This document shows positions 2,207 to 14,042 of a stretch of 20,000 nucleotides of DNA, one piece after another. Under the pieces are notes generated by a model that had not been told where the DNA came from, did no database searches, and worked only from the letters and a program-made list of their open reading frames with translations. Position numbers and translations under genes: made by a program. The stretch's first letter is position 1. The number at the start of each line of letters is the position of its first letter. This stretch comes from an uncultured virus (IMG/VR IMGVR_UViG_3300020050_010858). Its lineage: Duplodnaviria > Heunggongvirae > Uroviricota > Caudoviricetes. The stretch lies in the IMG/VR virus record IMGVR_UViG_3300020050_010858; one strand, written 5' to 3'.

Positions 2207-3130
2207 ATGGCCTCACTGCCCTATATGCAGTTTTTCCCCTCCGATTGGATGGCAGATTGCCAAGTTCTGTCGTTGGCTGCGCGCGGGGCATGGCAGACGA
2301 TTATTTGTAAGGCATGGCACCCTTCCACAAGGGGTGTAATCACCATGAAATTACCGGCTATAGCCAGGCTATTAGGGGCTACCGTGGAAGAGGCGGAAAA
2401 AGCAATATGTGAGATTTCAGAAACGCAGATCGGCGACGTCAAAAACAACGAAGACGGAACGATTACCATCATTTGTCGCCGTGCAAAACGCGACTGGGAG
2501 AGTGCCGAAACTCGTCATTCTTCTCTGTCGGAGGCCGGATCTAAGGGCGCGGCAAAACGTTGGAAAAAGCCCGATAGCCAGGCCAATAGCCACCCCATCG
2601 AAAGGCCAATGGCAATCCAGAAGCTAGAAGCTAGAAGCCATATTATACCCCCAACCCCCAAAGCGAAGACGCCGAAACCCGATCGAATCCCAACCACTGA
2701 GTCAGCCAAGCGAATCGCTTCGCTCTTCGCGCGCCGTCTGACGACGGCTTGGAGCGAGAAAGAGGTCAAGGCTTTCAAGTCTCTCGGAGATGTGGTTCCA
2801 GACGACCTGGCTGCAATTGAACGCTACTATGCCGTAGAGCGCGCCAAGGGACCTGACGCCGGCCGACATCGGAGGGACCTACTAACGTTTCTGAATAACT
2901 TTCCTGGCGAAGTTGATAGGGCGAGAGCAAAACAGCCGCGCCCATGCACAGGAGCCACCTCGACGCTCGAGCTTGTTCGCCAGCGCGCCCTGGTCTTCGG
3001 GCTTGTAGCCTTCCGCGAGTGGATGCGGATTGAGTACGGCGACAGAGCTGAAGGCGAGGACGATCTACACACTGTCACTCGCGAAGGACTGATCGTCGAT
3101 TTTCTACGTTCAAAAGGAGCATTAGCATGA
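2207..3130 (+). CDS. phage replication initiator (YdaU/DUF1376-like N-terminus)
   Basis: LPYMQFFPSDWMAD...LSLAARGAW..II.KAW N-terminus; GSKGAAKRW motif; low-complexity linker with short repeats. Confidence 0.75.
   Translation: MASLPYMQFFPSDWMADCQVLSLAARGAWQTIICKAWHPSTRGVITMKLPAIARLLGATVEEAEKAICEISETQIGDVKNNEDGTITIICRRAKRDWESAETRHSSLSEAGSKGAAKRWKKPDSQANSHPIERPMAIQKLEARSHIIPPTPKAKTPKPDRIPTTESAKRIASLFARRLTTAWSEKEVKAFKSLGDVVPDDLAAIERYYAVERAKGPDAGRHRRDLLTFLNNFPGEVDRARAKQPRPCTGATSTLELVRQRALVFGLVAFREWMRIEYGDRAEGEDDLHTVTREGLIVDFLRSKGALA
2571..2640. repeat. short imperfect repeats in the initiator linker (candidate origin iterons)
   Basis: ATAGCCA x2, AGGCCAAT x2, then AGAAGCT-AGAAGCT-AGAAGCC at 2619-2639. 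Confidence 0.4.
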
Positions 3131-3155: not shown

Positions 3156-3671
3156 ATGAAAGCTCATCAAAGCAGTACTGGAAAAAACGACGAGTGGTTA
3201 ACGCCGCGATGGATATTGGAACCGCTTGGTGCGTTCGATCTCGATCCTGCCTCACCCGTGAGGCGGCCATGGCCTACCGCTCGCCATCACATGACCGTTG
3301 AGGATGATGGTCTGGCTAGCAAGTGGTTTGGTCGCGTATGGCTAAATCCTCCGTTCAACCGCTATCAACGGCCTAAGTGGATGCAGGCAATGGCGGGGCA
3401 TGGTAATGGGATCATGCTGATTCCTGCTGCCACAGAGACCGCGGCCTTTACGAAATGGGTCTGGAAAGAAGCGAATGCAGTTTGCTTTGTGGCAACCCGG
3501 CCACACTTTCACTTAGTCACCGGCGAGCGAGCAAAGGCCAACTGCGGCTGCTCAATCGCGCTAGCGGCCTATGGCGAGGACAACGCACGAATCTTAGAGC
3601 GTAGCAGGCTCGGAGCCACACTCCGCCTGCGCGCCCACCACCCAACCCATCAACCGAGTGAGCGAAAATGA
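3156..3671 (+). CDS. phage DNA N6-adenine methyltransferase (small Dam-like family)
   Basis: DEWLTP, FDLDPAS, DDGL..KW.GRVWLNPPF motifs. Confidence 0.85.
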   Translation: MKAHQSSTGKNDEWLTPRWILEPLGAFDLDPASPVRRPWPTARHHMTVEDDGLASKWFGRVWLNPPFNRYQRPKWMQAMAGHGNGIMLIPAATETAAFTKWVWKEANAVCFVATRPHFHLVTGERAKANCGCSIALAAYGEDNARILERSRLGATLRLRAHHPTHQPSERK

Positions 3672-3684
3672 GTGATGCGCAAAC

Positions 3685-3945
3685 TTGTGTTTGTCGAAAC
3701 GAGACACGCTCTGGACGCTCGCCGTGTGCGCGTTCGCTGGATGGTGGGTGTGGTGGGTGCCGCTGGCACTCTTCGCAACGCACTTCGCGCAGGATCGAAC
3801 GAACATCATCATGTGGTGGATGAAGCTGCCGTGGAAGGATCAAACCGCCTTTACAACTGGACCTTGCTCGCCGTGGTCGATCATCGTGGTCGATAACGTC
3901 TGGCACATCGTGACCCTCTACGTGGTGGCGTATGTATTGGTCTAA
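3685..3945 (+). pseudogene. 5'-truncated membrane protein, DUF3307-like C-terminal half
   Basis: THFAQDR and VDNVWH motifs in hydrophobic helices; in-frame TGA at 3673 and no good start; stop TAA lies in the first attC-like core. Confidence 0.5.
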
Positions 3946-4069
3946 CGCAGAGGTCAGGAATCCTCACCCAGAAAAACCATGAATATGAATAAAGCAATCA
4001 AAACAAAATCGGCCTCATCGAAGCCCCAAGTCGCGGCGGGTGGGGATTCCCTGGACCGCCTTGTTCGCC
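3940..4069 (-). repeat. attC-like site 1 (130 bp)
   Basis: + strand: GTCTAAC GCAGA GGTCAGGAATCCTCACCC ... GGGTGGGGATTC[C]CTG[G]ACC GCCTT GTTCGCC. Confidence 0.85.
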
Positions 4070-4386
4070 TGCGTTTGGCGATGTGGGCGGAGGGGTGGAC
4101 ATCCGAGGATCAACTCACGACAAACGGATGGGGAAGCGGACTTGGATACTCTATCTGGTTCAACCGATGGGACTGGCACGGCAAAAGGCTGACGGCCTTC
4201 CGCGCAACCTACCACGCGCACGGGCTGGCCAGGGATGGAATCCTGAGCGTCGCAGAAAAAGCGGCGGCACTGGCGCGGGAGGCGTGGGAGAGGTTCCCAG
4301 ACGAACCACCAAATCAGATGGCTCATTACGTGCTGCAATCGCCGGGGGATTATGTCTTGGCGAACGATCAGTTATGCCAGCCATGA
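3979..4386 (+). CDS. hypothetical cassette protein (135 aa)
   Basis: Start in the loop of site 1; stop in site 2, overlapping the next ATG. Confidence 0.65.
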   Translation: MNMNKAIKTKSASSKPQVAAGGDSLDRLVRLRLAMWAEGWTSEDQLTTNGWGSGLGYSIWFNRWDWHGKRLTAFRATYHAHGLARDGILSVAEKAAALAREAWERFPDEPPNQMAHYVLQSPGDYVLANDQLCQP

Positions 4387-4453
4387 GCGCCAACGACGAT
4401 CTTTTCACGCTAGAGCCAGCCGCGAAGGGCTTGGCATCAGCGTCTTGTTCAGC
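4359..4453 (-). repeat. attC-like site 2 (95 bp)
   Basis: GGCGAAC GATCA GTTATGCCAGCC ... GGCT[T]GGCAT[C]AGC GTCTT GTTCAGC. Confidence 0.85.
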
Positions 4454-4952
4454 GGTTCTTTCGAGCTGCGGACAGTATCGCTACGAGCTTTGGAGGCGAT
4501 GGGCAGAGGGGCCGCATGTGCTCTTCATAATGCTCAATCCATCGACCGCCGACGCCACGAATGACGACGCCACAATCCGCAAGTGCGTGGCTTACGCGAA
4601 GCGGTGGGGTTTCGGGGCGCTGTGCGTTGGGAACCTCTTCGCCTTCCGTGCGACTGACCCGAAGGACATGAAAGCCGCTGCCGATCCAATTGGGCCGGAG
4701 AACAACGCCACACTCGCAAGGCTGGCAAGCGAGGCAGGTGTGATCGTGGCTGCTTGGGGAGCGCATGGCACGCACATGAGCCGCGACAAGTCAGTGATGA
4801 AGATGCTGCCGACAATCAACGCCCTGCACGTCACGAAAGACGGCTCGCCGGGGCATCCGCTCTACCTCAAAGGTGACGCCACGCCCTTTCCGCTGAACGC
4901 AGAGTTAACGCGCGGCGTAGCCGTCGCGTTGAACGCCGGGTTAGAGCCATGA
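4383..4952 (+). CDS. DUF1643 family protein (189 aa)
   Basis: YRYELWRRW, FIMLNPSTAD..DD.TIRKC, NLFAFRATDP, AAWG, GHPLY motifs; ATG 4383 preferred over the track start at 4083. Confidence 0.9.
   Translation: MSANDDLFTLEPAAKGLASASCSAVLSSCGQYRYELWRRWAEGPHVLFIMLNPSTADATNDDATIRKCVAYAKRWGFGALCVGNLFAFRATDPKDMKAAADPIGPENNATLARLASEAGVIVAAWGAHGTHMSRDKSVMKMLPTINALHVTKDGSPGHPLYLKGDATPFPLNAELTRGVAVALNAGLEP
4892..4946 (-). repeat. attC-like site 3 (55 bp, minimal)
   Basis: GCTGAAC GCAGA GTTAACGCGCGGC GTA GCCG[T]CGCGTT[G]AAC GCCGG GTTAGAG; G and T extrahelical bases. Confidence 0.9.
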
Positions 4953-5362
4953 CGCACCACCGCGTGACGCCGATGGGCCAGGCGATGGGGAAGAGCGCCG
5001 CGCGACTGGCGCAGCTTGGCCGCCTACGGCTCGAAGCCGCTGGGCTGACGAACCTGAAGCTGCCCGCGATGCGCGACGAGATGTGCAAAACCTGCGCTGG
5101 TCGAGAGGGAACCGTGCCGAACGGCTGCCTGCAAACGCAGCTCGATTTTCTGAAAGCGGTGGTTGATGGTCAGAGATTTTTATGTCATTCGCCAAAAGAT
5201 GGCCGGATGTGCGCTGGTTGGGTGGCCGCACGCGCTGAGCATGTGGCAAACCCGCTGCCGAGCGAGGCTCAGGAGTTTTTAGCGCGCTGGGAATATTCAC
5301 CGCCCGATGCCGATGGCTCTAACACCACGATGAGCTGCACAGCCCCGAAGGAGGACGCATGA
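4949..5362 (+). CDS. hypothetical Cys/His-rich cassette protein (137 aa)
   Basis: CKTCA, FLCH and MCAGW motifs suggest Zn binding; ATGA overlaps at both ends. Confidence 0.7.
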   Translation: MTHHRVTPMGQAMGKSAARLAQLGRLRLEAAGLTNLKLPAMRDEMCKTCAGREGTVPNGCLQTQLDFLKAVVDGQRFLCHSPKDGRMCAGWVAARAEHVANPLPSEAQEFLARWEYSPPDADGSNTTMSCTAPKEDA

Positions 5363-5413
5363 ATCCAGAGCAAAGCGTGGACGGGGCTGTGTTAGCTCCA
5401 TCGACTGTTCGGC
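5317..5413 (-). repeat. attC-like site 4 (97 bp)
   Basis: CTCTAAC ACCAC GATGAGCTGCACAGCCCCG ... CGGGGCTGTGT[T]AGCT[C]CATC GACT GTTCGGC; loop holds AAGGAGG and an ATG. Confidence 0.85.
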
Positions 5414-5607
5414 CTATGCCGATAGAAATGAGGCGATGGCTGAAATATCAACTCGAAAAAGCAAGGCAGCCGATTCCGGAATCTGATCGCAAATATCCAC
5501 TCAGGGTCATGCTGTATGAGTCCAATCGTGAAATGATGGAGGAGTGGGATAAATGGATCGAATCGCTGCCCTCTTTTGATCAGCCGAACGATAAAATCCT
5601 GCCATGA
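5359..5607 (+). CDS. hypothetical cassette protein (82 aa)
   Basis: AAGGAGG RBS before ATG 5359; ATGA overlaps at both ends. Confidence 0.7.
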   Translation: MNPEQSVDGAVLAPSTVRPMPIEMRRWLKYQLEKARQPIPESDRKYPLRVMLYESNREMMEEWDKWIESLPSFDQPNDKILP

Positions 5608-5680
5608 CTCCCGCGCCCTTCCAGCTCGATTCTGAACCGACTCCCTCGCGGGAGTCATTGGCAGCGATGCCTTGTTGTGG
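5583..5680 (-). repeat. attC-like site 5 (98 bp)
   Basis: GCCGAAC GATAA AATCCTGCCATGACTCCCGCG ... CGCGGGAGTCAT[T]GGCAG[C]GAT GCCTT GTTGTGG. Confidence 0.9.
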
Positions 5681-6377
5681 ATCTTTGGATCTGCGCTTGG
5701 CTGACTGCATGGAGGTGATGAAAACCTTCCCGGATGGCCACTTCGACCTTGCGATAGTCGACCCGCCTTACGGACTCGGTGACGCTCTGGTCGCTGGTGG
5801 AACATGGTCGGTTAAGTATCAAGCCAAGGGGGCGAAATGGGACGTGAAGCCGGAGGCTGAATACTTCGAAGAACTCCAGCGCGTGGCGAAAAACTGGATC
5901 ATATGGGGCGCGAACTACTACTCGCAACACCTCCCGCCAACGCGGGGCTTCGTCGTCTGGCACAAGCCGAACATGGAAGGAATGCACACGATGGCGAACT
6001 GTGAGCTGGCATGGACGAGCTTCGACCGGAATGCCAAGACGGTATCAATCACGCGGCCAAACGAAGACAGAATCCACGTCTGCCAGAAGCCGGTGAAGCT
6101 CTATGACTGGCTCCTGGCAAACTTCTCGAAACCGGGCGAGCGGGTGCTGGATACGCACATGGGAAGCGGAAGCATCGCCATTGCGGCTCACTACGCCGGG
6201 GTGCATCTGACGGCCTGCGAGATCGACCCGGAATACTTCCACGCGGCCAAGGCGCGAATCGAAAAGGAGACGCGCCAAATGGACTTCTTCAATCTCCACA
6301 ACGACGGAACTCAGCGACCCGGCTCACCGGACGGGTCGCTTGCAACTGAAACGCGAAAGCCGGGTTCGCTGAAGTGA
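5604..6377 (+). CDS. N6-adenine/N4-cytosine DNA methyltransferase (beta-type motif order)
   Basis: DLAIVDPPYG catalytic motif, IIWGANYY, H..QKPVKLY, VLDTHMGSGS SAM-binding motif, EIDPEYF. Confidence 0.92.
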   Translation: MTPAPFQLDSEPTPSRESLAAMPCCGSLDLRLADCMEVMKTFPDGHFDLAIVDPPYGLGDALVAGGTWSVKYQAKGAKWDVKPEAEYFEELQRVAKNWIIWGANYYSQHLPPTRGFVVWHKPNMEGMHTMANCELAWTSFDRNAKTVSITRPNEDRIHVCQKPVKLYDWLLANFSKPGERVLDTHMGSGSIAIAAHYAGVHLTACEIDPEYFHAAKARIEKETRQMDFFNLHNDGTQRPGSPDGSLATETRKPGSLK

Positions 6378-6387
6378 CTGGTTAGAC
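6296..6387 (-). repeat. attC-like site 6 (92 bp)
   Basis: CCACAAC GACGG AACTCAGCGACCCGGCT ... AGCCGGGT[T]CGCTG[A]AGT GACTG GTTAGAC. Confidence 0.85.
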
Positions 6388-6408
6388 CACGGCAACAACA
6401 CCAAAAAT

Positions 6409-6729
6409 ATGACAAACCAAAGACTAAGAAACCTGACTACTGGCCGACTCCACACGGAAATGGGCCACATCTACGAAGACCTCGGAATCATCACCGGCGA
6501 GGAAGGGCTGATGACTCACATGCTACCGAGAGCAATGCGCGCCTGTGAACCGTGGCTGCGCGAGCACGTCACCGACCCGCGCTTCTGGGATGGCGAATAC
6601 GATACAACGCACACCGGAGAAACCGAACTCCCGACGCCAAGCGAGGCCGACCGCAAGGCGATGTTCGAGCGATACGCGGAACAACCGAATCCACTCGCTG
6701 GCAAAGAGGTCATAGGCGTAGTGGTCTAA
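6409..6729 (+). CDS. hypothetical cassette protein (106 aa)
   Basis: ATG after an A-rich leader; stop TAA lies in the GTCTAAC core at 6724-6730. Confidence 0.75.
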   Translation: MTNQRLRNLTTGRLHTEMGHIYEDLGIITGEEGLMTHMLPRAMRACEPWLREHVTDPRFWDGEYDTTHTGETELPTPSEADRKAMFERYAEQPNPLAGKEVIGVVV

Positions 6730-6786
6730 CAGGTAGAAAACCAAAGAAACTTCGTATAAACGAAAAATCACTCTGTTAAATAACCA

Positions 6787-6814
6787 TAGACATACGCGCA
6801 TGTCGTGATAGATT
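6787..6814 (+). promoter_or_regulatory. candidate sigma70-type promoter with an overlapping palindromic operator
   Basis: TAGACA (6787-6792), 16-nt spacer, TAGATT (6809-6814) preceded by TG; near-palindrome GACATACGCGCATGTC at 6789-6804; ATG at 6822. Confidence 0.4.
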
Positions 6815-6821
6815 GAATGAA

Positions 6822-7076
6822 ATGAAAGTAACAATTTGGAAAAATTTTGGAAAACGGAAAGGGCTATCTATCTCAAAAGATTGCTCGCCGATTGGACTTG
6901 TTGAAATTTGGAACAGTATTTCCAATATGGGAAATCTCAAATCTGATGCCGTATCAGATCTAATGTTCATGCGAGCCAGTAGGATGCTTCGTCTATCTAT
7001 CGAGGCTGGGGCAACTCCATTCAATCTTACTGAAAGAAAAGGATACCAAATCATCCAGGCGGAGGTTGAGTTATGA
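6822..7076 (+). CDS. hypothetical protein in AT-rich segment
   Basis: In-frame ATG at 6822 (track start is TTG 6813); ATGA overlap with the next gene. Confidence 0.6.
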   Translation: MKVTIWKNFGKRKGLSISKDCSPIGLVEIWNSISNMGNLKSDAVSDLMFMRASRMLRLSIEAGATPFNLTERKGYQIIQAEVEL

Positions 7077-7459
7077 GTGTTTATCCTGACTGTCCTCACG
7101 GGGAAGAGCAGCTTGAATCTGGTGTTCTTAACGACCCTACTCCCAAATCTATCGAGTGGGGCGATCTCGCGGATTTCGACGAAATGTTCAAGCATATTTG
7201 CGAACACTCTGACGGATTTACATATGCTCAAATGGAAACAGTTCGAGCGTGGATGCATGCGGGGATTTCGTGGAAACAAATGCAACATGTTAACGAAATT
7301 CATGATTTCAAATCCATCTTGTTAAGATGTTACAATAACGGAATTGATTCTGTAAATTTCGATGGTCGTCTTGCTTCTGAAAATAAACTAGCGACCGAAG
7401 AAATTCTGAAATTCCCAATATCCGATTGTTCGTTAAATAATAACGAGGCCTACAGATGA
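7073..7459 (+). CDS. hypothetical acidic protein (128 aa)
   Basis: GGAGG RBS upstream; ATGA overlaps at both ends. Confidence 0.65.
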   Translation: MSVYPDCPHGEEQLESGVLNDPTPKSIEWGDLADFDEMFKHICEHSDGFTYAQMETVRAWMHAGISWKQMQHVNEIHDFKSILLRCYNNGIDSVNFDGRLASENKLATEEILKFPISDCSLNNNEAYR

Positions 7460-7698
7460 AATGCCCTCAATGCGGCTACGAAATCGAGTCCCAGCAAAGG
7501 CGAGCTGCAAATTCTCGCTGGTCAAAAATGACCCCCGAACAGAAATCCGCCCAAATGTCCAAAATCCGCAAAAAGGGGATTAAGAAAAAGAAGAAACCCC
7601 TTAGCAAGAATGGATACGACAACACAGACCCCTTCCGTTGCCACCAGTGCCTTGTTAGGATGCCCGTTCTGCGGTGGCGAAGCGAGCGCAACCGGTGA
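7456..7698 (+). CDS. small basic protein with N-terminal CPQC, possibly DNA-binding
   Basis: MKCPQCG...SRWSKMTPEQKSAQMSKIRKK; the C-terminus runs into the next cassette. Confidence 0.55.
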   Translation: MKCPQCGYEIESQQRRAANSRWSKMTPEQKSAQMSKIRKKGIKKKKKPLSKNGYDNTDPFRCHQCLVRMPVLRWRSERNR

Positions 7699-7921
7699 AG
7701 TGAAATACTCCGAAACCCATGAAGCGTGGTGGAAGGATGGAACACGCATCCGTAAATCCTACTTCTGCAACTGCATGAAGTGCGGAGTAACCAACAAGGG
7801 TCTGTGCGGACATCAGACGCCTGCGCTGGCTGTCAGACATTGGAACACCCGCAGTCAGGCTAACGCAATAGGTGAGGCACGGGCGGACACCGACACCTCG
7901 CCGCAAGATCAAACTCTCTAG
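7610..7921 (+). CDS. Lar-like (restriction alleviation) Zn-ribbon protein
   Basis: LLGCPFCGGEA ... CMKCG ... AVRHWNTR pattern. Confidence 0.75.
   Translation: MDTTTQTPSVATSALLGCPFCGGEASATGEVKYSETHEAWWKDGTRIRKSYFCNCMKCGVTNKGLCGHQTPALAVRHWNTRSQANAIGEARADTDTSPQDQTL
7635..7660 (-). repeat. attC-like half-site (right arm only)
   Basis: CCGTTGCCACCAGT GCCTT GTTAGGA resembles the right arms of sites 1, 5 and 7; no complementary left arm upstream. Confidence 0.55.
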
Positions 7922-7981
7922 CCACCATGCCACTCCGAAACAACACCGCCCCGCCCGTTGCTCTCGACCGACTTGTTCGGG
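7858..7981 (-). repeat. attC-like site 7 (124 bp)
   Basis: GGCTAAC GCAAT AGGTGAGGCACGGGCGG ... CCGCCCG[T]TGC[T]CTC[G]ACC GACTT GTTCGGG; three extra bases (T,T,G). Confidence 0.85.
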
Positions 7982-8238
7982 ATCTCATTTCGCGGGCGAG
8001 AGATCAGAAACGCCGCACCCGCCAACGACTGCGTGACATGGAGGGAGATTTCATCGCGGAGCCGACTCGCGGCCCCATCCAACGCAATGGCAGGCGGTGC
8101 ATCCGCTGGCACTTCTGGCAGGCATCCCGCGCCAAACATCAGGCCATCACCGACCAAATCACGGCGGTCAAATCATGTATCCCGAACACCGTAACGGTGT
8201 GGGACACGAAGGCGGACAAAGAAGTCTATCGCGCATGA
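7927..8238 (+). CDS. hypothetical Arg-rich cassette protein (103 aa)
   Basis: Start in the loop of site 7; stop overlaps the HTH gene ATG. Confidence 0.6.
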   Translation: MPLRNNTAPPVALDRLVRDLISRARDQKRRTRQRLRDMEGDFIAEPTRGPIQRNGRRCIRWHFWQASRAKHQAITDQITAVKSCIPNTVTVWDTKADKEVYRA

Positions 8239-8450
8239 ACTGGGCTGCACAATTCGTCGAAGCACGCGGCAGCCTCACTCAAGCGGAGGCTGCCGCTTCC
8301 ATTTCCGCGCTCCTCTCTGTGCGCACCGTTGAAGATTGGGAACTCGGTCGCAGGCAACCTCCAGCTTGGGTGCAAGCTCTCGTGCTCGCTGTTCTTCGGC
8401 GGGCGGCGGGGAGGAAAACCGCTCGCGCGAAAACCGGAGCAAGGAAATGA
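8235..8450 (+). CDS. XRE/Cro-like helix-turn-helix protein (71 aa)
   Basis: LTQAEAAASI...SVRTVEDWELGRRQPP; ATG 8235 preferred over the track start at 8097. Confidence 0.85.
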   Translation: MNWAAQFVEARGSLTQAEAAASISALLSVRTVEDWELGRRQPPAWVQALVLAVLRRAAGRKTARAKTGARK

Positions 8451-8559
8451 ACGACGACATGAGCCACTGCGAAGCCAGCCCCGCCGCAAAATGACCGCCC
8501 AAGCCACATCCCGGCCCGAGTCCAACCGCGTAGCGGTTGGCTCGATGGGCTTGTTGGGC
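8446..8559 (-). repeat. attC-like site 8 (114 bp)
   Basis: AATGAAC GACGA CATGAGCCACTGC ... GCGGT[T]GGCTC[G]ATG GGCTT GTTGGGC. Confidence 0.8.
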
Positions 8560-8829
8560 GATGTCCTCCCTGGTCAAAAATTCCGCTTCCCTCACAGGAA
8601 AGAAGGCGCGCCGGTCTATGAAATGCTATCGCGCGGAAGCTGGAAGGCTGGAATGCAGGTCCGCAGAACGTGGCCGGATGGATGCTCTGACGAGGTGACG
8701 CTCTCAAAGAAATACCTGCGCGAGGAAGTTATATTTATTCAGCCCAACGATAAGGTCAGCGACGGCGGGCCGCTGACTCCCGAATCCAAACAAGACGCGA
8801 ACCCGCCGTTCGCTGCACCGCTTGGTTAG
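8491..8829 (+). CDS. hypothetical cassette protein (112 aa)
   Basis: ATG 8491 in the loop of site 8; reads through site 9. Confidence 0.6.
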   Translation: MTAQATSRPESNRVAVGSMGLLGDVLPGQKFRFPHRKEGAPVYEMLSRGSWKAGMQVRRTWPDGCSDEVTLSKKYLREEVIFIQPNDKVSDGGPLTPESKQDANPPFAAPLG

Positions 8830-8831
8830 CC
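8742..8831 (-). repeat. attC-like site 9 (90 bp)
   Basis: GCCCAAC GATAA GGTCAGCGACGGCGGG ... CCCGCCGT[T]CGCTG[C]ACC GCTTG GTTAGCC. Confidence 0.9.
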
Positions 8832-8834
8832 CTT

Positions 8835-9080
8835 ATGACACTACAACGCAAACTCACTCAATGGACGGAATGTGTGCCGGAAGAAATGGCGAAGATGTCG
8901 CCAGCGGCAATCCAATACGCACTGGCCGACGCCAAGGCGGACATAATCACAATGGCGAAACTCCTGTGCGAAGCCGGATACCCGCGCCGTGGAACGCCGG
9001 AAGAATCCCAAACCATCTATGACTACGCCGAGAAGGTGCAAACGCTCATCCCGCACGCCGATGCCGTCGAGTTGGGCTAA
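8835..9080 (+). CDS. hypothetical cassette protein (81 aa)
   Basis: ATG just after site 9; stop TAA lies in the GGCTAAC core. Confidence 0.7.
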   Translation: MTLQRKLTQWTECVPEEMAKMSPAAIQYALADAKADIITMAKLLCEAGYPRRGTPEESQTIYDYAEKVQTLIPHADAVELG

Positions 9081-9106
9081 CGCAATAGGTGAGGCGCACG
9101 GGCGGA
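9075..9106 (-). repeat. attC-like half-site (left arm only), near-copy of 7858-7887
   Basis: GGCTAACGCAATAGGTGAGGC[GC]ACGGGCGGA; no right arm downstream. Confidence 0.75.
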
Positions 9107-9139
9107 AAGCGCCACGTCGCCACGCCAGAAAGGAATGAA

Positions 9140-9370
9140 ATGACTCCTGAACATCTGACGCGATTGCAGTTCCAGTTCGCGTCGATAAAATCATGGATAG
9201 AAATAAAGCCAAAAGAAGCTCAAGCAGCGCTACTAGCATTAATTCCTAAGCGCAACGATTATCGAATTTGGGCCATACTTGAAATGGTCTGTTTATATGA
9301 CTCAGAAGATAGCGCCGAGAAGAAAAATATTGAGCGCACAATTTTGGAGATTTTAAGAAATAAATTATGA
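9140..9370 (+). CDS. hypothetical protein
   Basis: AAAGGA RBS before ATG 9140; ATGA overlap downstream. Confidence 0.55.
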   Translation: MTPEHLTRLQFQFASIKSWIEIKPKEAQAALLALIPKRNDYRIWAILEMVCLYDSEDSAEKKNIERTILEILRNKL

Positions 9371-9606
9371 GTGAAGAATCGAAATGCGAATCTATGTGCG
9401 AGGGGAGATATACAGCCACTGGGCATTGCTTGTGTCACGCCACACATAGCGAAGATGTAGTGCCTAGAGAGCTTGCCATAAGGCTCGAAAAAGAAGTCCA
9501 CATTCTAGAGGCGGCATTAAAGGCGACTAAAGGTAAACGCATGGGGCATGTTGAGGATATTGTAAAAAAGGCCCTCCGTGAAGTAGAGAGGATGAGGAAA
9601 TTATGA
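9367..9606 (+). CDS. hypothetical protein (79 aa)
   Basis: ATGA overlaps at both ends; C-terminal coiled-coil character. Confidence 0.55.
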   Translation: MSEESKCESMCEGRYTATGHCLCHATHSEDVVPRELAIRLEKEVHILEAALKATKGKRMGHVEDIVKKALREVERMRKL

Positions 9607-10043
9607 GTGTTTGCAGAAATCACAATCCCTACGACAGATGGACGTATGACCACCAATGCCCTGTTTGTTTATCAAAGACCATTGACGAGAAAGACGCGAC
9701 CATCGCCGAGCTGAATGCGCGGGTTAAGGAGCTGGAGGAGAATGTGCGGGAATCTCAAAAACAAGACCAGAGCACTCTCTCCGAGTCTAACGAGCGGCTG
9801 AGAGAACATATAACCTCCCTAAATTGTGGTGGCCGCGATGGAATTGATGTTTGCACGGAAGATAGTGCATGTTTTGTCCACTCAGCACTCTCCGACACGC
9901 CATCCGGCCAGCGGTTTGTTAAGAGGGAGGTTTTGGAGGGCGTTATGGCAGTTGCCAGATTTGGAAGTATGGAGCAGTCGCCACCCGGATTTTCGGACGA
10001 TCAAATTGATGCAGCCCAGGCCGAGCTGGATAGGACGAGGTGA
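9603..10043 (+). CDS. hypothetical coiled-coil protein with Cys pairs (146 aa)
   Basis: CPVC; heptads KDATIAELNARVKELEE. Confidence 0.6.
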   Translation: MSVCRNHNPYDRWTYDHQCPVCLSKTIDEKDATIAELNARVKELEENVRESQKQDQSTLSESNERLREHITSLNCGGRDGIDVCTEDSACFVHSALSDTPSGQRFVKREVLEGVMAVARFGSMEQSPPGFSDDQIDAAQAELDRTR

Positions 10044-12366: not shown

Positions 12367-14042
12367 CGCGCAAATCCCCGATAGACATTGCTCAAGGCGT
12401 TCTGGATAGATGGGATGCATTGTCGACGGAGCTAGGAATTTGGCGAACAAACTGGCAAGACATCGCCACATATATTCAGCCTCGCAAGGCTAGCATTCAG
12501 ATATCGCGTTCATACCCTGACACCAATACTCAGGCACAACTTTTCACATCGACGGCCATCCGGGCCAATCAGACGTTAGCAAATGGCATGGTGTCGATGA
12601 TGACACCAGTAGAGTCGCCCTGGTTTGCCTTCGATGCGCCCGCGAGCCAGAAGACATCTGGGCCTGTAAAGGCGTGGTATTCAGAATGCACAGAGATCAT
12701 TCAAGCGCTTTTAGCGGCTTCGAATTTCTACACCGAAGTGCATGAAATGTTTTTGGATCGTGGCGGGTTCGGCACGGCTGCAATGCATATCGAGGTCGGC
12801 AAGAAAAACCTCTTTAACTTTACCAATCTAGGCATTGGATCTTACGCGCTCTCTGAAAACGACGAGGGGTATGTAGACAGTGTCATTCGTGAAATGCCGA
12901 TGACGATTAAGCAGGCCGTTCAAAAATTCGGTATCGATAACGTCAGTGAGAAGACCCGCAAAAAATTCAACGACCCAGGAAACAAAAAGGGCCGTGAAGA
13001 AAAGATCACAATCATTCATGCGATTTATCCTCGTGCTGATGGTGAATATGAGGCCGGCAAGATAGGTCCAGAAAACATGCCGATCGCCTCTTGCTACGTG
13101 GAAAAAGAGGGCCCACATCTCATTGAAGAAGGCGGCTACCAAGAGATGCCGACACTTGCGACTCGTTACCTCAAGTGGGGCGATGGGTTTGTTTACGGAT
13201 GGTGCCCTTCCTGGTTTGCGCTACCGGATGCCCGGCAATTGAATTTCTTGGAAAAGATGATGGATGCTCTCGCTGAGAAAGCCGCATTCCCTCCGATGAT
13301 TGCGCCGGCCTCTATGGAGGGTGTAACGACGGTGGATGTTCGCGCCAACGGGGTAACGTACGTTGAAGGCGACGAGCAGGCGACGTTGCGCGAGTGGCAG
13401 ACTCAAGGAAGATACGATATCGGCAAGGATCGAGTACTGCTCAAAGAGCAGGCTATCAAAGAAGCTTACCACAATGACCTGTTTCGCATGTTCAGCGAAT
13501 ACGAGGGCCCGCAGATTACAGCGTACGAGGCCAGTCTGAAGCAGGGAGAGAAGCTTATTCAGTTCTCCCCTACGAACACCCGACTTACTACTGAGTTTTT
13601 CAATCCTCTCTTGCAGCGCCTTTGGGGGATTGCTATTCGCGCAGGAGTACTTCCGCCACCACCGGAAGAGGCTGTTCAAATTGGAGCCGATCAGAAGGGT
13701 TATATCCCTGAGCCCGAGATCACCTATACCTCTCGAATCGCACTGGCGATCAAGTCTATAGAGACAGATGCATTTCTTAAGACGATTCAAATTTTGTTGC
13801 CTATATCGGAACTAAGGCCGGAAGTTTTTGACTACCTCAACTTCGACCAGGCGACTCCGGACATCGCTCGTAACAACGGGACCCCGTCGCGGTGGATAAC
13901 ATCGGACGAGGAAGTTCAAGCCATTCGCCAGGGACGAGCGGCGGCCGCGGAACAGGCACAAGCGATGGAGGCGCAGTCTATGGCAGCCAATACCATTAAA
14001 ACGGCTGCGCAGGCGCAATCTGAGACCCTCAAAGCAGCATGA
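12363..14042 (+). CDS. portal (head-tail connector) protein, podovirus T7/BPP-1-like type
   Basis: 559 aa; A...LANGMVSMMTP...PWF, SNFY.EVHE...D.GGFGTA, YGWCP, ITAYE motifs; follows the terminase. Confidence 0.93.
   Translation: MTRKSPIDIAQGVLDRWDALSTELGIWRTNWQDIATYIQPRKASIQISRSYPDTNTQAQLFTSTAIRANQTLANGMVSMMTPVESPWFAFDAPASQKTSGPVKAWYSECTEIIQALLAASNFYTEVHEMFLDRGGFGTAAMHIEVGKKNLFNFTNLGIGSYALSENDEGYVDSVIREMPMTIKQAVQKFGIDNVSEKTRKKFNDPGNKKGREEKITIIHAIYPRADGEYEAGKIGPENMPIASCYVEKEGPHLIEEGGYQEMPTLATRYLKWGDGFVYGWCPSWFALPDARQLNFLEKMMDALAEKAAFPPMIAPASMEGVTTVDVRANGVTYVEGDEQATLREWQTQGRYDIGKDRVLLKEQAIKEAYHNDLFRMFSEYEGPQITAYEASLKQGEKLIQFSPTNTRLTTEFFNPLLQRLWGIAIRAGVLPPPPEEAVQIGADQKGYIPEPEITYTSRIALAIKSIETDAFLKTIQILLPISELRPEVFDYLNFDQATPDIARNNGTPSRWITSDEEVQAIRQGRAAAAEQAQAMEAQSMAANTIKTAAQAQSETLKAA

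Follow-up and report, generated by a model that had tools for sequence, protein, structure and literature searches.

Integrons, and clusters of attC sites lacking integron-integrases (CALINs), have been reported in phage genomes. The portion of that work drawn on here counts 17 CALINs of two or more attC sites, describes the typical cassette direction in two phages, and proposes that phage cassettes help to overcome host defence (Qi, Rajabal, Ghaly, Tetu, Gillings 2023, PMC9892861); this portion holds no analysis of reading frame, bottom-strand genes, starts inside attC or stops in attI. Excerpts of Nivina et al. (2016, PMC5027507) state that promoter-facing cassettes are absent from sequenced integrons, and that the integrase recombines the attC bottom strand, with RYYYAAC in R´ and cleavage within AAC. 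For class 1 integrons, passages of PMC8876359 describe an open reading frame (ORF), ORF-11, that runs over the crossover of attI1 to an in-phase stop supplied by the cassette core, as well as short ORFs within attC that relieve hairpin blocks. Here we analyse a 20,000 nt stretch (the window) of an uncultured virus, IMG/VR record IMGVR_UViG_3300020050_010858, in which a series of genes is interspersed with attC-like hairpins. We consider it likely that these form a phage-borne integron cassette array carried on the attC bottom strand, in which a predicted fixed-phase junction would keep termination correct after shuffling.

Integron theory places cassettes on the top strand for expression from the promoter Pc and treats attC as a non-coding tail; the phage family described here does the opposite. 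As in class 1 and sedentary chromosomal integrons, an IntI-type integrase is present in relatives, attI lies beside intI, polarity is towards intI, and the attCs have an AAC/GTT R box, an unpaired spacer, extrahelical bases and a variable loop. In contrast to those systems, the genes are on the bottom strand and read towards intI, and therefore a Pc promoter in attI or intI cannot serve them; attC, at the 5´ end of its gene, has a coding part, and ORFs extend over the crossover. With the published phage integrons and CALINs, so far as the cited portion describes them, the locus shares phage attC arrays, some of them without an integrase, and DNA methyltransferase cassettes, whereas it differs in its 10 sites plus two remnants and in its membership of a family represented by dozens of viral contigs. 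With ORF-11 and ORF-18 of attI1 it shares an ORF over the crossover, an in-phase stop from the partner site and a proposed termination-reinitiation. In the passages cited, however, those are short top-strand leader peptides at one class 1 site, while in the arrays described here it is the cassette genes that run over the crossover; they do so on the opposite strand, in a single phase and at almost all junctions. Phage integrons are thus already published, but the bottom-strand, frame-locked layout proposed from these sequences appears to be new to print: a literature search that excluded supplements found no paper on such cassettes or on the attI stop.

Hairpin sites and their polarity

Sites were located with a frame-blind scanner and constrained DNA folds, which required AAC, a 4-6 nt spacer, a stem in which bulges were allowed, a spacer and GTT. 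Positions 3940-9121 hold nine well-formed attC hairpins, one atypical site and two remnants:

3940..4069, + strand: attC 1, hairpin 3944-4065 (AAC 3944, GTT 4063), score 26.3, bulges 0/2; the upstream ORF ends TAA-C and start 3979 is in the loop
4359..4453, + strand: attC 2, hairpin 4363-4449 (AAC 4363, GTT 4447), score 16.8, the lowest of the nine
4892..4946, + strand: attC 3, hairpin 4896-4942 (AAC 4896, GTT 4940), score 19.0, 47 nt core to core
5317..5413, + strand: attC 4, hairpin 5321-5409 (AAC 5321, GTT 5407), score 28.3, fold z -2.9; AAGGAGG and start 5359 are in the loop
5583..5680, + strand: attC 5, hairpin 5587-5676 (AAC 5587, GTT 5674), score 31.5, fold z -5.2; start 5604 is in the 5´ stem arm
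6296..6387, + strand: attC 6, hairpin 6300-6383 (AAC 6300, GTT 6381), score 24.5
6724..6730, + strand: remnant core GTCTAAC (AAC 6728), TAA-C, no hairpin (-3.1 kcal/mol), AT-rich DNA directly behind
7858..7981, + strand: attC 7, hairpin 7862-7977 (AAC 7862, GTT 7975), score 23.0; a Lar-like tail ends at 7921 and the next start is 7927
8181..8332, + strand: atypical site (AAC 8185), folding without an unpaired spacer
8446..8559, + strand: attC 9, hairpin 8450-8555 (AAC 8450, GTT 8553), score 18.8; the upstream ORF ends TGA-AC and start 8491 is inside the site
8742..8831, + strand: attC 10, hairpin 8746-8827 (AAC 8746, GTT 8825), score 28.0, fold z -2.9; the tail stops at TAG within the GTT box
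9075..9121, + strand: half site (AAC 9079), its 5´ arm a copy of the attC 7 arm, with AT-rich DNA in place of the 3´ part

The nine hairpins score 16.8-31.5 on the + strand; ten shuffles of the sequence gave 4-11 matches at a score of at least 14. From core to core the nine measure 47-122 nt, with spacers of 4-6 nt and two or three bulged bases on the 3´ arm. Bulges are exclusively on this arm (0 versus 2-3) in eight of the nine, and the 8746 site has one and three. Whole-site fold z-scores are mixed (-5.2 to +0.3) and insignificant for five of the nine well-formed sites, but they are a poor test for attC because of the large loops. attC 2 is absent from the unconstrained RNA fold, attC 3 is translated in its entirety by the ORF of a DUF1643 gene, and at attC 6 the tail of a methyltransferase ends at 6377, with the next start (6409) outside the site. 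At the atypical site, the minimum-energy fold instead involves the AAC at 8193, a triplet that would lie in phase 2. To judge from sequence identity, AAC 8185 is nevertheless a real junction, because one contig of another sample matches the window at 100% as far as 8184/8185 and is dissimilar beyond that point. A strong, G+C-rich hairpin of 11 bp was also noted at 8266-8296, inside both this site and ORF 8235-8450.

As a control, the same scanner was applied to the class 1 integron of plasmid pJB35, which has three attCs, and the pattern was recovered. The pJB35 bulges are on the 5´ arm on the gene strand and on the 3´ arm on the intI1-coding strand. By this pattern, the window's + strand corresponds to the attC bottom strand, and the window's genes are thus inverted relative to classical cassettes: attC anatomy and polarity towards intI are as in normal integrons, and gene orientation is reversed. 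The + strand carries every gene in the window with a Pfam or PHROG match, an arrangement that differs from classical top-strand cassettes, which are promoterless and read away from intI from Pc. Longest-ORF cover between sites was tried as a test of the coding strand and was not decisive in this G+C-rich DNA (+ 0.41-0.98, - 0.36-1.00); the coding strand was therefore taken from the Pfam/PHROG matches together with the phase test.

On the gene strand, a cassette would thus run from the C of the core through the remainder of its own attC and the gene body to a final AA. The attC would belong to the gene behind it, often supplying that gene's start codon and first codons, and the tail beyond AA-C would belong to the next cassette.

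Reading frame and sequence breaks at the core

A preliminary description of the window had proposed that the reading frame is locked at the crossover, and all the coordinates on which it relied match the sequence. Eight ORFs cross a core in phase 0 and read its AAC as Asn: 3979-4386 (AAC 4363), 4383-4952 (4896), 4949-5362 (5321), 5359-5607 (5587), 5604-6377 (6300), 7610-7921 (7862), 7927-8238 (8185) and 8491-8829 (8746). The remaining four stop at the core (TAA at 3943, 6727 and 9078, TGA at 8448), each abutting it. Even in the window alone, eight of eight in phase 0 has p ~0.001-0.005 against a null of 0.41-0.51. The phase of the entering GTT varies, being 0, 1, 0, 1, 0 and 2 at 4063, 4447, 5407, 5674, 7975 and 8553. 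ATGA overlaps are present at 4383, 4949, 5359, 5604 and 8235, and the stops at 7919-7921 and 8827-8829 are 5 nt ahead of the starts at 7927 and 8835.

The description had also held that the codons after the Asn belong to the neighbouring element and change with context. In an alignment of the DUF1643 protein with 14 homologues (64-95% identity), 13 of the 14 are alike up to the residues LN, the Asn of which is encoded at 4896, and beyond LN the tails are unrelated and vary in length. Similarly, the 24-residue tail that follows Asn 233 of the methyltransferase is found in none of 15 homologues, and no Pfam/PHROG match extends past the Asn. Four other runs (X1-X4) supplied contigs that together cover, per run, 0.08-0.13 of the stretch, the uncovered parts being uninformative. 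These contigs lose or begin identity at four cores, 8184/8185, 8449/8450, 9079 and 4899; in X1, record 5 breaks at 8184/8185, record 6 breaks at 8449/8450 and record 8 begins at 9079. Homologue ends, contig breaks and the start of similarity at attI (see below) all place the cassette boundaries at the AAC/GTT crossover. The proposals of a frame-locked crossover core, of tails that belong to the neighbour and of a stop inherited from the next element are borne out by these comparisons. Nearly all cassettes differ between related arrays, and breakpoints fall at cores, which is indirect evidence for excision and insertion catalysed by IntI.

Integrase-bearing relatives, the phase rule and attI

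A 20-base piece of the repeated attC arm matched two viral contigs. Of these, L007 (59.6 kb) has terminal repeats and carries six attCs of the same polarity as those of the window. Its ORF 6964-8004 encodes a tyrosine recombinase, for which the integron-integrase model TIGR02249 gives 260 bits (cut-off 265) and XerD 118; aligned with IntI1 over 289 residues, it shows 38% identity and 9 gaps. This near gap-free alignment runs through the segment that we take to be the IntI-specific domain. The integrase gene is on the + strand downstream of the array, the position and strand that the attC polarity predicts, and the supported cassette genes of L007 read towards it. An alignment of four L007-type integrases was used as the query for further relatives, giving 53 viral loci (integrase identity 32-100%), 11 metagenome loci and three loci in Luteolibacter and Haloferula genomes; these last suggest hosts in the Verrucomicrobia. 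The portal of the window is 50% and 36% identical to those of two contigs that carry an integrase; in these, intI lies between the array and the terminase. With blastn, the array gave short single-gene matches only against named phages. The portal protein, tried as a route to related arrays, gave a sole close relative, L001, that begins downstream of the array.

The phase of AAC was tabulated across 30 loci around related integrases, after five duplicates were dropped. Sites had to score at least 18, to be bulged more on the 3´ arm than on the 5´ arm and to have another site no more than 1.5 kb away; 151 sites on the + strand qualified. An arriving frame was called if the upstream open run was at least 60 codons and at least 1.3x the next longest. 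Among the 109 sites with a called frame, 80 are read through in phase 0, 14 end in a stop at TAA-C and five in a stop at TGA-AC, and six and four are read through in phases 1 and 2, respectively. Of the 90 ORFs that read through, 80 do so in phase 0 (p <= 3e-14 against the context-matched null); among the remaining AAC triplets of these ORFs the phase-0 share is 41%, or 39-51% with matched context. The arriving proteins at the 109 sites fall into 104 sequence clusters, and of the 85 read-through clusters 75 are in phase 0 (p 5.6e-13 against 0.514). Given the number of clusters and the matched null, codon bias and shared ancestry do not explain the frame rule. As in the window, the phase of the downstream GTT is spread over all three phases (18/32/24), and a start is predicted inside the attC in 41 of 74 cases. 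In the 19 attCs whose upstream gene has already stopped at the core, an in-site stop is present in frame 0 in 17, in frame 1 in nine and in frame 2 in 16.

Upstream of intI, five loci are unrelated up to an AAC and alike from there on. The attI motif so defined is present in nine distinct related loci, at 10 sites, and at all 10 a phase-0 TGA lies at +6 (AAC, one codon, TGA). The longest open frame arriving at attI is mostly phase 0 (208, 176, 168, 108, 98, 93 and 91 codons), with three sites short or ambiguous. The clade of L045 and L046 likewise has its attI TGA at +6. A more distant clade (L063 7824, L066 7821, L068 2811) has a different attI in which the first stop is in phase 1 (+11), and its cassettes end in phase 1, five at TAA-C and one by read-through. 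These numbers are small, and the sequences hint that attI sets the frame convention for its clade.

Three further observations concern the integrase region. In L007, positions 6990-7012 hold a conserved palindrome, rich in G+C and trailed by a T run, which directly follows the attI crossover and TGA and lies just ahead of the probable start of intI (7030). Its possible roles are termination or attenuation between the operon and intI, or integrase binding. In L014, a second copy of an attI-like motif is found at 13380, ~5 kb downstream of intI, with an attC-like site nearby at 13094. Virus Rctr41k (L016, KX853513.1, 4680-10097) has an IntI-like gene, annotated as xerD and 39% identical to that of L007, with about six attC-like sites downstream of the gene. 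The polarity of these sites is unclear, so the locus was left out of the analysis; it may have a different integron layout.

Competing explanations, phage context and significance

In the mechanism that we favour, a gene would either stop within its own cassette, at TAA-C or TGA-AC, or cross the junction with AAC read as Asn and be terminated a few codons on by the next element. The single phase would be maintained by selection as a convention. Among the integrase-bearing relatives, the closest clade has an attI whose TGA, two codons after the Asn, closes phase 0, and nearly all attCs also carry a phase-0 stop. Given matching stops in attI and the attCs, a cassette should therefore end properly wherever it is placed, with only a short C-terminal tail changing. 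A broader generalisation is that reverse-running phage integrons are widespread, with cassettes on the recombining strand in an operon that ends in intI and a universal frame standard at the crossover (Asn AAC or TAA-C); we give this an even chance of holding. Under it, attI and the attCs would supply the stop and often the next start, and the attI stop may set the frame convention clade by clade.

Several observations weigh against the frame-locked cassette reading. Frames were set by open-frame length rather than by a gene finder, and 42 of the 151 sites were dropped as ambiguous in arriving frame, leaving the 109. Phase 1 or 2 is used by ten of the 90 ORFs that read through; in six of the ten the ORF continues for over 200 nt beyond the site, which may then be a false site inside a gene. 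Frame 2 is closed inside attC (16/19; 50/80) about as often as frame 0, and the availability of attC stops alone therefore cannot explain the use of phase 0. At attI, another phase stays open into intI in only four of the nine loci. attC 6 (6300-6383) precedes different DNA in two other samples, and the attC-encoded N-terminus common to most close DUF1643 homologues differs in one that has 92% body identity; thus, attC and the following gene are not always linked as the cassette model predicts. The window itself yielded no intI by tblastn over its 20 kb (best E 1.1) and no copy of the clade attI motif at up to three mismatches. Lacking intI, the array is a CALIN, and it probably arose after loss of attI and intI. 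In the window the array ends with the half site at 9079, followed by AT-rich genes, and relatives have attI and intI at the matching position.

Much of this evidence also bears on other explanations. The in-frame triplets might have been picked by the reader from a pattern produced by chance, codon bias or shared ancestry, and other AAC triplets do fall in phase 0 more often than one third of the time (41%, up to 51% when context-matched). With 80 of 90 in phase 0 at sites defined by structure alone, and 104 clusters among the 109 sites, such an origin is scarcely credible. We regard it as very unlikely that the hairpins are terminators, repetitive extragenic palindromic (REP)-like repeats or the sites of some other recombinase, since their geometry is that of the class 1 control, relatives carry an integron-type integrase and attI in the right polarity, and mosaic breakpoints fall at AAC, notwithstanding the lack of an integrase in the window and the weak whole-site fold z at several sites. 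The phase might instead be a historical by-product of how cassettes originated, by joining at an Asn codon or by copying an ancestral in-frame junction, without current selection. The frame rule does span integrases of 32-100% identity, and we know of no established origin for integron cassettes. This account is nonetheless improbable in view of the single phase common to 104 unrelated gene clusters and the matching stops that attI and the attCs keep even in a currently unused frame. The clade with a phase-1 attI stop, in which cassettes also end in phase 1 (five TAA-C, one read-through; small numbers), argues in the same direction.

Translation coupling was the second function assigned to the sites in the preliminary description, and here the outcome was divided: the ATGA overlaps and the frame lock stand, but the overlaps are not specific to attC. 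They recur outside attC junctions at 7073, 7456, 9367, 9603, 12363, 14039 and 14332, and Shine-Dalgarno-like motifs are rare across the whole window, so that overlaps and missing motifs are as common elsewhere as at the attC junctions. The overlaps reflect the general gene packing of the phage. Coupling at attC sites is plausible as an interpretation, and it could even be the selected function. In that case, a ribosome translating in phase 0 would traverse the 5´ arm of the hairpin in the mRNA, open it and stop at or beside the next start, where it could reinitiate, while other-frame stops at the hairpin base would leave the hairpin closed. The five ATGA overlaps and two 5-nt gaps at the window junctions are in line with this idea, as is the location of start 5604 within a stem (z -5.2). 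Among related loci, phase-0 stops occur at a median 43% of attC length, with 52 of 56 within 1.1x attC length, 15 of the 56 phase-0 junctions are -4 overlaps (by crude start calls), and in several attCs frame 1 or 2 is closed early, at +5 to +11. The ORF-11 and short attC ORFs of class 1 integrons, as presented in the cited passages (PMC8876359), offer a precedent. Set against these are the equal frequency of overlaps and missing motifs at non-attC junctions of the window, the position of most starts in loops rather than stems, the insignificant fold z at five of the nine sites, and an attI phase-0 stop at +6 that has no adjoining gene start, and we hold coupling as the selected function to be a tentative proposal, on balance doubtful. 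Two further parts of the preliminary account need qualifying. A hairpin that hides the next start finds no specific support in the window, where a stem holds only start 5604, start 5359 and its AAGGAGG are in a loop, and fold z-scores are mixed; and cassettes would not be inserted upstream, as integron polarity puts entry at attI, which is at the downstream end of the array in relatives. That account also lacked two features found here, the bottom-strand orientation of the genes and the phase-0 stop carried by attI.

Apart from the sites, the window has the following supported or predicted genes:

343-816, + strand: SSB-like, replication module
828-1298, + strand: endonuclease VII-like, replication module
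1875-2204, + strand: RusA-like, replication module
2207-3130, + strand: primosomal, replication module
3156-3671, + strand: Dam methyltransferase, after the replication module
3685..9080, + strand: cassette gene stretch as a whole
3685-3945, 3979-4386, 4949-5362 and 5359-5607, + strand: cassette ORFs without a named product
4383-4952, + strand: DUF1643 cassette gene (Pfam/PHROG)
5604-6377, + strand: N6/N4 DNA methyltransferase cassette gene (Pfam/PHROG)
6409-6729, + strand: DUF7736 cassette gene (Pfam/PHROG)
7610-7921, + strand: Lar-like cassette gene (Pfam/PHROG)
7927-8238, 8235-8450, 8491-8829 and 8835-9080, + strand: further cassette ORFs without a named product

After the Dam methyltransferase, the gene order proceeds through small genes to the small and large terminase, a T7-type head-tail connector, a capsid protein and a tail tubular protein. 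Given its replication, terminase, connector, capsid and tail genes, the window is a podovirus-like phage or prophage. Two AT-rich gene blocks, 6731-7609 and 9122-10043, have 38-45% G+C compared with ~60% in the flanks. The first starts right behind AAC core 6728 and the second behind the half site 9079-9121; they look like foreign modules inserted via attC junctions. Two contigs from another sample abut at 7609/7610, and a spacer plus GTT at 7649-7660 resembles, by eye, the 3´ end of a broken attC.

Counter-defence-like cargo in the window comprises Dam (3156-3671), the N6/N4 methyltransferase (5604-6377) and the Lar-like protein (7610-7921). L007 encodes a Lar-like restriction-alleviation protein and an Acb2/Tad1 hairpin-domain protein (3599-4027 and 5627-5962), and methyltransferase homologues are found inside the arrays of L029, L032, L050 and L075. 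This methyltransferase, Lar-like and Acb2/Tad1-like cargo suggests, from predicted products, that phages use integrons to shuffle counter-defence genes.

A fixed frame across the recombination point would solve the translation problem of reversed cassettes. The rule operates at the level of sequence and is testable on thousands of arrays; it would explain the variable C-termini of cassette proteins among close homologues, and it bears on how cassettes are made. If true, these phages would have a natural plug-and-play standard for swapping coding modules, largely anti-restriction and anti-defence, without breaking translation.

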